The notes under the pieces are model-generated. The model did not search any database. It was not told the origin of the DNA and worked only from the letters and a program-made list of their open reading frames with translations. Position numbers and translations under genes: made by a program. This document shows, in pieces, positions 59,201-62,156 of a stretch of DNA of 64,000 nt (its first letter is position 1; every line of letters starts with the position of its first letter). Source of the DNA: Amoebidium appalachense (taxonomy: Eukaryota > Protista > Ichthyosporea); contig CAVNZM010000010.1 of the NCBI GenBank assembly GCA_963693365.1, forward strand, positions 7,503,794 through 7,567,793, in the 5' to 3' direction.

Positions 59201-62156
59201 CACCCCAGACCAAATATCCTCCCCGGACACCATGGGGGCATCCCCACCATCAGTACTGGACGAGGGATCGGCATACATAGCACGGCAACGTACGCTCCCC
59301 CCCTCCCTCCCTTCCCCACCCCCCCCCCCCCCCCGGGGGGGAGAAAAAAAAAAAAAGAAGAAAGAAAGAAAGAAAAAGAAATAGAAAAGAAAAGAAAAGA
59401 AAAAAGGTAAAAACGAAAGGGACTGATTGTGTATGCAAAGATAAATGTGAGGATACTGGCACATAGTTGCTTCTCGTGTGAACAGCACTGCCTCGCGCTC
59501 TTTGTGTGTGTGTTTATTCTGTAATATGGAATTCCTACACGCACATAAACAAGGGGGCGGGTATGATCCACACACAACCAACGCACACACACACTTCCAA
59601 AAATACAAATACACGGACACACAGAGACCGATACCTACAAGCACGGGCACCCGCGCGCAATATATAAACGCATATACAAGCGCATGTGCGCCATGCCCAC
59701 GGAGAGCACACACACACACACACACACACACACACACACACACACACACACACACACACACACACACACACACACACACACACACACACACACACACACA
59801 CACACACACACACTTACATTTCCACACGCACACGCACATGCACACCTCTGGGCACCCTCTCACACACATCCAACCTCGCACACCATGTGCTGTGCACATG
59901 CGGCCATGCGGCCATAATTCGAAGCCTTTCTGTCTCCCCTATTCTTGCGTACATATGCACGTTGCACTCTGCACACCCATGACCACACACACCATCCCCT
60001 GTGCTGACACGTACGCACACGTACACCACATACAGACGTACATGCACACACACACACACATACACACACACACACACACACACACACACACACACACACA
60101 CACACACACACACACACACACACACACACACACACACACACACACACACACACACACGTACAGGTGTATCTAGTGACCATGACCACAGCAGCCACATCAC
60201 CGTTGCAGAGACATACCCCAAAGCAGTATGTGTTTTGAGTGAGGGGGAGGATGGGGGCAAACAAGTACTAGTTGCACTGCCCAAGACGGTGACCATGAGT
60301 GGCAATGAGCTTGCACGGCTGCTGGGGTGTGCCGATGACGACATAGTCAGCATGGCCGCACAGCCTCACTACATGATCACATTCAAGGATAACACCGTAC
60401 AAGCCCCCCCCCCCCCCCCCCCCCCCCCCCCCGGTGTGGGCTCTGCTTATAACGCAATCGATTTATGTGTGTTCTGCAACATCTGCATTGTATTGTCCGT
60501 CGTGAGTATGTATTCTGTAATCTGCAACACATGCTTAATGTGTTACACATTCTAAGCCCCCACCACGAATAGGGGGAAAGAAGAAAAAGAAGAGAGAAGG
60601 CACATGAGGTCTTGCCTTGAACGGTAATTTGGTTTCCTCTCTCGTGTTTTTTGTGTCCCACCGAGTGCATGTTGATATCTTGGCTTCAGTGTATCCAACC
60701 CCCCTATGCATACGTAATACTCCCCCCCCCCCCTATGGCTTGCATTCTGCATCGTGTTATCCGTTTGTTCTTGTGTACTTCGTACTTTTTAACGCATTCA
60801 AACCCCCCCCCCCCCCCCCCCCCCCCCCGCGCGCTTCGTTTCTCTGCCCACACCTTACGAGGAGCAGGAGGATGAAAAGGAAAATACAAAGAAACACAAC
60901 CGCAGACCACGAGCATGCAGGCACACACATGCACACGACTACAAATCCAGACACACCCACTAATCACACAGACACATACAACACACACGCACACACAGAC
61001 ACACGCACACACCTACATGCATCACTATCCCCCCCTCTCCCCCCCCCCCCCCCCCCCTCTCTCCCCCTCCCCCCGTCCCCCCCCCCCCCCCCCCCCCCCC
61101 TTTTCTTCCCCACTTCTCCACCTCCCCCCAGCTCCCCACTTGTTTGGAGTTCAATAATTGGTTCTTTTTTCAATCCAACTCACCTCTACGAACCCAACGC
61201 TCTTTCCCTCCACAACATTCTCAGCGAACAAATTTAGAACAGTCAGGCGGACCACGTTGATTACTGGCTGACCGTGATTGCTCTCAAACCCCTAGGGAGG
61301 GTTTGGGGGGGGGGGGGGGGGAGGGATGAAAGAAAGAAAGAAGGAGAAAAAGAGAAAAAGAAACAAGATGCATGAGATGGCCCCAGTTTGTCGGCTGCAA
61401 TTAAATGCGTCCATGTGAATACATCGTCAATAATGGAAACCCTGTTGCTTCTGCCCTACGTGTGTTTGTGCTCTGACATCTTGTTTTGATTGCAGGCAGC
61501 TAACCGGGTACTGAACCGACTCAACGAGAACTCACCAAAACCCCTTGTGGCGGGGTTGGGCACACCAAGGTGGGTTTTTGTCGTGCATCTGTTGTGTGAG
61601 TTGATTTTCAATGTGTATGTTCACGGCACACGCACGTAATAATAACTGTGATTGTAGGCGATCTTTTTTTGTTGAGTGTAGAGTGTGTGGGACGCGCTGG
61701 GGGGAGCTAGGGAGGGAAGGTAGGGGGGGGGGGGGGAGGTTGTGTACGTGTGATCCTGTGTGTGTGTGTGTGTGTGTGTGTGTGTGTGTGTGTGTGTGTG
61801 TGTGTGTGTGTGTGTGTGTGTGTGTGTGTGTGTGTGTTGTGTGTGTATGTGTGTGTGTGTGTGTTCCCTGCATGTTTTTTGTGTGCACGTGTGTGTGTGT
61901 GTGTGCATTTTCATTTGTGTGGGAGGGTGTGCGTGCATCTGGTTTGTGTGTGTGTGTGTGTGTGTGTGTGTTTGTGTTTGTGTTTGTCCGTGTGTTTGTG
62001 TGTGTGTGTACACGCTAACCGGGGTGCTTTGCACCCACTCACAGACTACCGGCGAGCCCCTTAGGCAGACGTGAGGACGGGTATGTTTCGGAGCACGATT
62101 CTTCCGCGTACGGACCACAGCGGGCTAGAAAGCGCCATCGCACAGACAACACCTAA
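50182..62156 (+). CDS. Soluble hybrid sensor histidine kinase PAS/PAC-HisKA-HATPase_c-REC with C-terminal RRM-like extension; 14 exons, about 715 aa from ATG 50182
   Basis: Exons 50182-50271, 51427-51606, 52142-52329, 52848-52951, 53851-53895, 54758-54947, 55987-56258, 56987-57159, 57438-57611, 58087-58242, 59133-59289, 60164-60396, 61496-61569 and 62045-62156 total 2148 nt in frame, all GT-AG. Motifs: PAS ([41 protein letters not shown]), H-box [20 protein letters not shown]-box QVLFNLLSNAIKFT, G1 EDTGVGM, F-box [10 protein letters not shown]2 [10 protein letters not shown], receiver [26 protein letters not shown]. The last four exons and the start codon are less certain. Confidence 0.93.
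50820..51012. repeat. (GC)n/(GCGT)n alternating purine-pyrimidine microsatellite
   Basis: Tetranucleotide GCGT array in kinase intron 1. Confidence 0.95.
56691..56898. repeat. (CA)n followed by (CAC)n microsatellite
   Basis: About 160 bp CA run then about 48 bp CAC run in kinase intron 7. Confidence 0.95.
57236..57453 (+). repeat. ~62-bp tandem repeat (4 copies) spanning the 3' splice site of kinase exon 9
   Basis: CATATCAGG core at 57244, 57305, 57368 and 57430; the last copy contains the functional acceptor (exon starts 57438). Confidence 0.9.

Follow-up and report, generated by a model that had tools for sequence, protein, structure and literature searches.

What lies beyond the receiver of a eukaryotic hybrid histidine kinase, and could it be an RNA-binding output? 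The question is raised by a gene on the forward strand of a 64,000-nucleotide stretch of DNA from the ichthyosporean Amoebidium appalachense (contig CAVNZM010000010.1 of assembly GCA_963693365.1, positions 7,503,794 to 7,567,793), hereafter the window, in whose coordinates all positions below are given. An original prediction made from the sequence alone had the encoded kinase ending in an RRM-fold-like domain and a basic tail resembling a nuclear localization signal (NLS), and proposed a one-protein switch from PAS to His to Asp to RNA acting in the nucleus. Here we show that the segment beyond the receiver is part of the kinase transcript and carries a small orphan domain, probably of an alpha/beta fold, whose role is most likely the docking of proteins.

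The kinase transcript extends through the tail

The gene model comprises 14 exons running from an ATG at 50064 to a stop codon ending at 62156, and codes for a protein of 754 residues with no internal stops, provided that base 50197 is omitted. At this position the assembly has five A's, against four in contigs of the sequencing runs X1 and X2; the surplus base disrupts the reading frame of exon 1 and probably reflects an error in the assembly. The introns preceding exons 12, 13 and 14 (874, 1099 and 475 nt) all have GT-AG borders.

The evidence for the 3' part comes from an X1 contig of 2920 nt (depth 56.4), whose record positions 2260-2491 match 60164-60395 in exon 12 and whose positions 2493-2566 match 61496-61569 in exon 13, with zero coverage of the intron between them. 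The unaligned ends of this match coincide exactly with the final 30 nt of exon 11 on one side and the opening 30 nt of exon 14 on the other, and the exon 12/13 junction is additionally spanned by a contig of X2, a run from the same sample as X1. At the 5' end, an X1 contig of equal length and depth matches 49651-50272 with record positions 1-621 and continues into exon 2; on the strength of this equality the 5' and 3' placements were taken as one record. The 620 nt so accounted for and the 1639 nt of the modelled exons 2-11 add up to 2259, which is the position just before exon 12 in the contig record. As this sum fills the gap between the two pieces exactly, it supports the junction 58242/59133 as well. 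The contig thus agrees in length, to the base, with the 14-exon model, and joins exon 1 to exons 11-14. It includes 5' untranslated sequence at 49651-50063, as far as the contig reaches, and its length implies a 3' untranslated part at 62157-62398, a figure obtained by arithmetic and not by direct alignment.

Because the contig is exon-joined and intron-free, we infer that it derives from a transcript; none of the runs listed as containing the sequence is recorded as RNA, the "RNA" label being a guess of the tool. The transcript evidence consists of assembled contigs from a single sample of a single study; such contigs drop rare variants, so shorter isoforms are possible. A further run, X3, had no contig aligning to the tail region of the kinase. 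Two other accounts of the tail exons were rejected on these data: that they constitute a separate gene, since a single contig links exon 1 with exons 11-14, and that the transcript ends at the receiver, since the contig runs on through exons 11-14. The kinase transcript thus includes the tail, and the original exon prediction stands: exons 12-14 (60164-60396, 61496-61569 and 62045-62156) yield the peptide it gave and end at the stop codon it named, its junctions 59289/60164, 60396/61496 and 61569/62045 are seen directly in contigs, and 58242/59133 is borne out by the length arithmetic only.

A hybrid kinase core with bacterial relatives

The domains come in the order PAS-HisKA-HATPase-receiver, the phosphorelay residues are intact, and a tail of 191 residues follows. 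Exon 1 (50064-50271, seen in contigs of X1 and X2) supplies the start codon, a Cys-rich N-terminus and the beginning of the PAS domain, and exons 2-3 (51427-51606 and 52142-52329) code for the PAS domain, a coiled coil and the H-box, in which sits His189 (52319-52321). HisKA and HATPase_c follow in exons 4-8 (52848-52951, 53851-53895, 54758-54947, 55987-56258 and 56987-57159), with the N, G1, F and G2 boxes all located, and the receiver in exons 9-10 (57438-57611 and 58087-58242). Pfam searches with single exons recovered PAS_9 (e-value 0.023 with exon 2 alone), HisKA (0.004 with a 34-residue exon), HATPase_c (7e-21) and Response_reg (2.6e-13 and 8.4e-6). The receiver, encoded by the same transcript as the kinase, has the acidic pair E447/D448, the phospho-acceptor D492 (57552-57554), T525 and K547. 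With the HisKA histidine, the HATPase_c boxes and the receiver residues in one chain, the protein is, to judge by its motifs, a hybrid histidine kinase. No transmembrane stretch is apparent in its 754 residues, and tblastn found no second copy within the window.

A search with exon 3 retained 73 proteins from 338 candidates, nearly all of them with PAS and HisKA domains; those named by organism are bacterial, none of the 73 is named as eukaryotic, and none carries an RRM, ACT or tRNA_edit Pfam family. Over the region from the PAS domain to the H-box (51427-52329, forward strand) local alignments show 38-81% identity to prokaryote-type kinases, many of which contain a MEDS domain (PF14417). The best relative is 41% identical over residues 45-558, and two close hybrid relatives end 7 and 12 residues past the aligned receiver. 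A weak search with receiver exon 10 gave no homologue among 7 candidates. This pattern of relatives hints that the kinase core may be of bacterial origin, by gene transfer.

A predicted orphan domain in the tail

The tail (residues 564-754) falls into four parts: a short helix-like stretch, a 50-residue linker rich in Ser, Pro and Asp, an 81-residue core (residues 634-714) and a hydrophilic end of 40 residues. Exon 11 (59133-59289, placed by the contig end and by composition) codes for the post-receiver helix-like segment and the start of the linker, which spans residues 584-633, and exon 12 (60164-60396) for the end of the linker followed by the strands and helix of the orphan domain. The frame is open through all four spliced tail exons, and the G+C fraction at third codon positions (GC3) is 0.60 in the tail against 0.64 in the kinase part. 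The composition of the core is like that of folded kinase domains, with order-promoting residues making up 33 of its 81 positions as opposed to 16 of the 90 in the flanks (p 0.001, with boundaries picked by eye).

AlphaFold2 models, which cover the exon 12 part, place a strand, a helix and two further strands in this order, with a predicted local distance difference test score (pLDDT) of 80.8 obtained without an alignment. The predicted elements lie at 60259-60276 (strand), 60301-60327 (helix), 60343-60360 and 60370-60384 (strands), preceded by an extra strand at 60220-60237. Exon 13 (61496-61569) holds a predicted amphipathic helix at 61496-61525 (residues 693-703), whose hydrophobic moment ranks 21st among 744 windows, and a possible last strand at 61538-61552. 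Residues 646-693 are thus predicted to adopt a beta-alpha-beta-beta fold that exon 13 would complete, and the models make a domain of about 80 residues of the ferredoxin-like (alpha-beta plait) type probable. Foldseek returned no PDB match at an e-value of 0.001 or below for either model, nor a BFVD match at that level for the 48-residue model. RNA-binding domains of the plait type (DbpA, eS24, Prp24 and TRMT2A) are frequent in the set of tied structural neighbours, where the regulatory domain of aspartate kinase and other metabolic enzymes appear too; the neighbours of the modelled fold single out no RRM. The small alpha/beta fold of the original prediction is compatible with the exon 12 models as a ferredoxin-like type.

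Sequence searches with exon 12 gave no homologue among longer proteins (21 candidates) and none in viral contigs; plasmids gave two matches at e-value 8 only, PDB sequences two at about 1, and NCBIfam none. Five matches among 1.84 billion representatives were dropped as long repeat proteins that sum weak stretches, and one metagenome locus proved a chance match to a urease-accessory-like gene (labelled by eye). The tail has no homologue in the searches made, and would appear to be a lineage-specific addition to the core.

Exon 14 (coding part 62045-62156, placed by the contig end) codes for the hydrophilic tail and the stop codon. Its RARKRHR (residues 744-750; 62121-62141) is the sole match in the protein to the class-2 monopartite consensus (P/R)XXKR(not D/E)(K/R), as given in PMC6360766. 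Such a match arose in 282 of 10,000 shuffles of the whole protein and in 52 of 10,000 shuffles of its last 40 residues; a looser K-K/R-X-K/R pattern, matched by 2099 of 5000 shuffles, is uninformative. The monopartite NLS-like end that had been predicted thus fits a defined consensus, and its location in the hydrophilic C-terminus suits a signal that may mediate nuclear import.

Is the tail domain an RRM?

Pfam found no RRM in residues 646-693, whereas all three genuine RRMs trimmed to about the same length scored e-values of 4e-18 to 2e-15. We further built two profiles, one on 58 RRMs from bacteria and the other on 56 domains of the YbaK superfamily (from matches with returned loci only). 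The whole RRM profile scored -17 on the tail domain against about +200 for its members, a value reached as high in 120 of 300 shuffles, 180 of 292 kinase decoy windows and 31 of 56 YbaK domains. The local profiles gave 0.3 bits for RRM (59 of 2000 shuffles as high) and 1.1 bits for YbaK (44 of 2000) over the whole tail, and 1.4 bits (15 of 2000) and 2.7 bits (20 of 2000), respectively, over residues 631-722; these rates are nominal ones of 1-3%, uncorrected for the number of families comparable. The local RRM profile does select the expected strand-3/helix-2 stretch. The control profile is canonical and bacterial, and divergent eukaryotic profiles were applied to exon 12 only, so a very divergent eukaryotic RRM is possible.

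To bind RNA, RRMs depend on aromatic side chains in RNP2 (position 2) and RNP1 (positions 3 and 5), according to PMC5113200. In the register of the original prediction these stacking positions are Leu651, His684 and Met686, while the control RRMs are aromatic there in 58/58, 57/58 and 58/58 cases. The domain is near neutral in charge and has no basic or aromatic RNA surface. Because it has no known relatives and lacks the RNA-stacking residues, it is, as far as residue patterns can tell, more likely to bind proteins than RNA. Thus, of the proposed RRM pattern the order of secondary structure in exon 12 is reproduced by AlphaFold2, whereas the whole-domain score lies at chance and helix 2 and strand 4, which fall in exon 13, are putative. 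The RRM label is not upheld, given the missing Pfam match despite working controls, the L/H/M stacking positions and the unspecific structural neighbours, and the PAS-to-His-to-Asp-to-RNA switch lacks support, with the profile at chance and the aromatics replaced.

A different family was suggested by the ESM Atlas, where both the whole of exon 12 and the originally proposed segment matched tRNA_edit (YbaK/ProX) clusters (scores 0.82 and 0.79), PF04073 being common to the ten best named matches of both searches. A third of shuffled proteins also attain Atlas scores in this range below 0.9, and these matches are a lead only. Against the strand-helix of the YbaK family, residues 647-671 give a gap-free alignment. 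The local HH alignment was beaten by 1 of 150 shuffles and the global one by 88 of 150, i.e. at chance; a profile of the N-terminal half of YbaK was beaten by 14 of 300 shuffles and 16 of 292 decoys. Pfam tRNA_edit has no match on the tail exons, and no YbaK-type chain is named among the VIA structural neighbours listed, which does not exclude one. After the matching strand the 56 family members have a helix and a Gly-Pro loop where our model shows a beta-hairpin, and the second half of YbaK has no counterpart, only the 40-residue hydrophilic tail standing in its place. We read the pattern as mainly showing that a short tail motif can be read into several families.

Weighing the explanations

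The explanation that we favor, at about an even chance, is a soluble hybrid kinase with an ordinary phosphorelay, a protein-docking orphan domain in its tail and a nuclear-import motif, the function being arrived at by elimination. A signal at the PAS domain would set the autophosphorylation of His189, followed by transfer to Asp492, from where the phosphate may pass on to an HPt protein or response regulator, as in other eukaryotic hybrid kinases. Tethered by its long flexible linker, the orphan domain would dock partner proteins, import into the nucleus would fall to the basic motif at the C-terminus, and the tail would have been added later, in this lineage, to a core of bacterial origin. 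The N-terminus weighs against a purely nuclear role: after frame correction it has six Cys in residues 17-26 (50109-50141, forward strand) followed by basic residues, has no Pfam match, and could serve in metal binding or lipidation.

Might the tail instead be a lineage-specific extension without a stable domain or selected function, appended to an ordinary hybrid kinase that ends at its receiver? The lack of homologues and of any Pfam or NCBIfam family would fit, as would RRM and YbaK profile scores that are both near zero bits. We consider this unlikely in view of the 191-residue frame kept open over four exons at a GC3 close to that of the kinase, the globular composition of a core set between two disorder-like flanks, its pLDDT without an alignment and the strong amphipathicity of the exon 13 helix. 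Less likely still is an ACT-like module binding a small molecule, which would make the tail an allosteric second input to the kinase and not an output. The ACT domain shares its superfold with the predicted tail domain, and this idea can draw on the aspartate-kinase regulatory domain and other metabolic enzymes among the tied neighbours, and on the missing basic or aromatic RNA surface.

About as improbable as an ACT-like module is a single-chain His-Asp-RNA switch, in which a degenerate RRM or other plait would bind nuclear RNA by a non-canonical surface under the control of receiver phosphorylation. The reproduced order of secondary structure, the RNA-binding plaits among the tied neighbours, the strand-3/helix-2 stretch found by the local profile with its low shuffle count on the trimmed domain, and the NLS consensus all speak for it, as does a bacterial two-component precedent of RNA output in the ANTAR domain, which is helical. 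It has to contend with the Pfam controls and the whole-profile score at chance, with the L/H/M stacking positions and near-neutral charge, with a YbaK profile that does equally well and Atlas neighbours that are tRNA_edit clusters, and with a disorder-like linker of 50 residues between the receiver helix and the domain. Least probable, in our view, is a relic of a YbaK/ProX domain: the PF04073 matches, the gap-free strand-helix, the local HH alignment and the N-terminal-half profile point that way, whereas shuffled proteins often reach the same Atlas scores, Pfam is silent, the global alignment is at chance, a predicted hairpin replaces the family's helix and Gly-Pro loop, and half of the domain is missing.

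Surroundings of the gene

The DNA of the window is eukaryotic, and its introns are long and rich in microsatellites. Intron 12 contains a short interspersed element (60438-60800, forward strand), a related copy of which lies at 46808-47086 on the reverse strand, apparently in an intron of the neighboring gene; part of the intron 12 element (60734-60793) is matched by short X1 contigs with a depth of up to about 8000. The intron 12 copy has no credible Rfam match and its folding energy is not unusual; over 60300-62500 Rfam gave four matches, all far under the gathering scores. The neighboring gene, consisting of exon-like pieces at 40900-48611 on the reverse strand and beginning with a ubiquitin-like domain, stands head to head with the kinase gene, at a distance of about 1.1 kb from the start of the kinase transcript, and X1 and X2 contigs cover its 5' end to 48737-48798. 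Also on the reverse strand are exon-like pieces resembling a DENN-domain protein (30466-34470) and two long open frames (254 and 352 residues; 2309-4672) resembling a proton-dependent peptide transporter, the latter poor in introns, in contrast to the other parts of the window. The labels of these three neighbors were given by eye.

Comparison with known systems

Little of the output side of eukaryotic two-component signalling has been mapped outside fungi, plants and slime moulds, and animals are described as without typical histidine kinases (PMC6324907). Were a PAS kinase of bacterial type to have acquired introns, a folded tail and a nuclear signal, it would illustrate how such enzymes become connected to eukaryotic cell circuits, possibly with no separate HPt and response regulator. 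Should the domain bind RNA, eukaryotic phosphorelays would have a further class of output. What stands at present is a single orphan domain from a single gene, of value as a well-defined target that is cheap to test. In a narrow literature search, outside which Table S1 of PMC6324907 lay, no eukaryotic hybrid kinase was reported to carry an RRM, and the term is absent from one supplement file of that paper and from the main text of PMC4558063, within the parts covered.

The premise that eukaryotic hybrid kinases end at the receiver goes too far, since domains of the cyclase and HPt kinds are described beyond it (PMC6324907, PMC6284317). Cyclase domains follow the receiver in a Vitrella kinase (HisKA-HATPase-REC-REC-CYCc) and are found in Perkinsus HK1, Physarum and Albugo kinases have a fused HPt (PMC6324907), and the algal 2c-Cyclops have a guanylyl cyclase past the receiver that is controlled by intramolecular phosphotransfer (PMC6284317). 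All share with our protein a kinase, a receiver and a further C-terminal domain in one polypeptide; their extra domains are recognisable as cyclase or HPt, with intramolecular control shown for a 2c-Cyclop, whereas ours is an orphan known from sequence. With the eukaryotic cytoplasmic PAS-type hybrid kinases (PMC6324907) it has in common the order of sensor, HisKA, HATPase and receiver, the intact relay residues and solubility, and it departs from them in its 191-residue tail with a small alpha/beta domain and NLS-like end and in having a single PAS domain after a six-Cys segment; the searches made turned up no orthologue of it in eukaryotes.

The tail domain resembles atypical protein-binding RRM folds such as the eIF3b RRM and the UHMs (PMC5113200) in its predicted beta-alpha-beta-beta core and replaced RNP aromatics; it differs in having no RRM profile match, no R-X-F after helix 2 and an extra N-terminal strand, and RNP1 position 5, aromatic in confirmed UHMs (PMC5113200), is non-aromatic here. 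The bacterial ANTAR regulators, e.g. EutV (PMC3369931), are a precedent for two-component signalling that ends in RNA binding, by way of another domain on a separate response regulator. The fungal phytochrome FphA (PMC12607886) is a hybrid kinase with a nuclear pool that acts via protein partners; it senses light by a phytochrome module where our kinase has a lone PAS domain, and its nuclear location is shown where ours is predicted. Eukaryotic hybrid kinases with domains past the receiver, and nuclear ones, are thus already known; what is new here is a real variant of the architecture with an orphan tail domain, which most likely serves protein docking.
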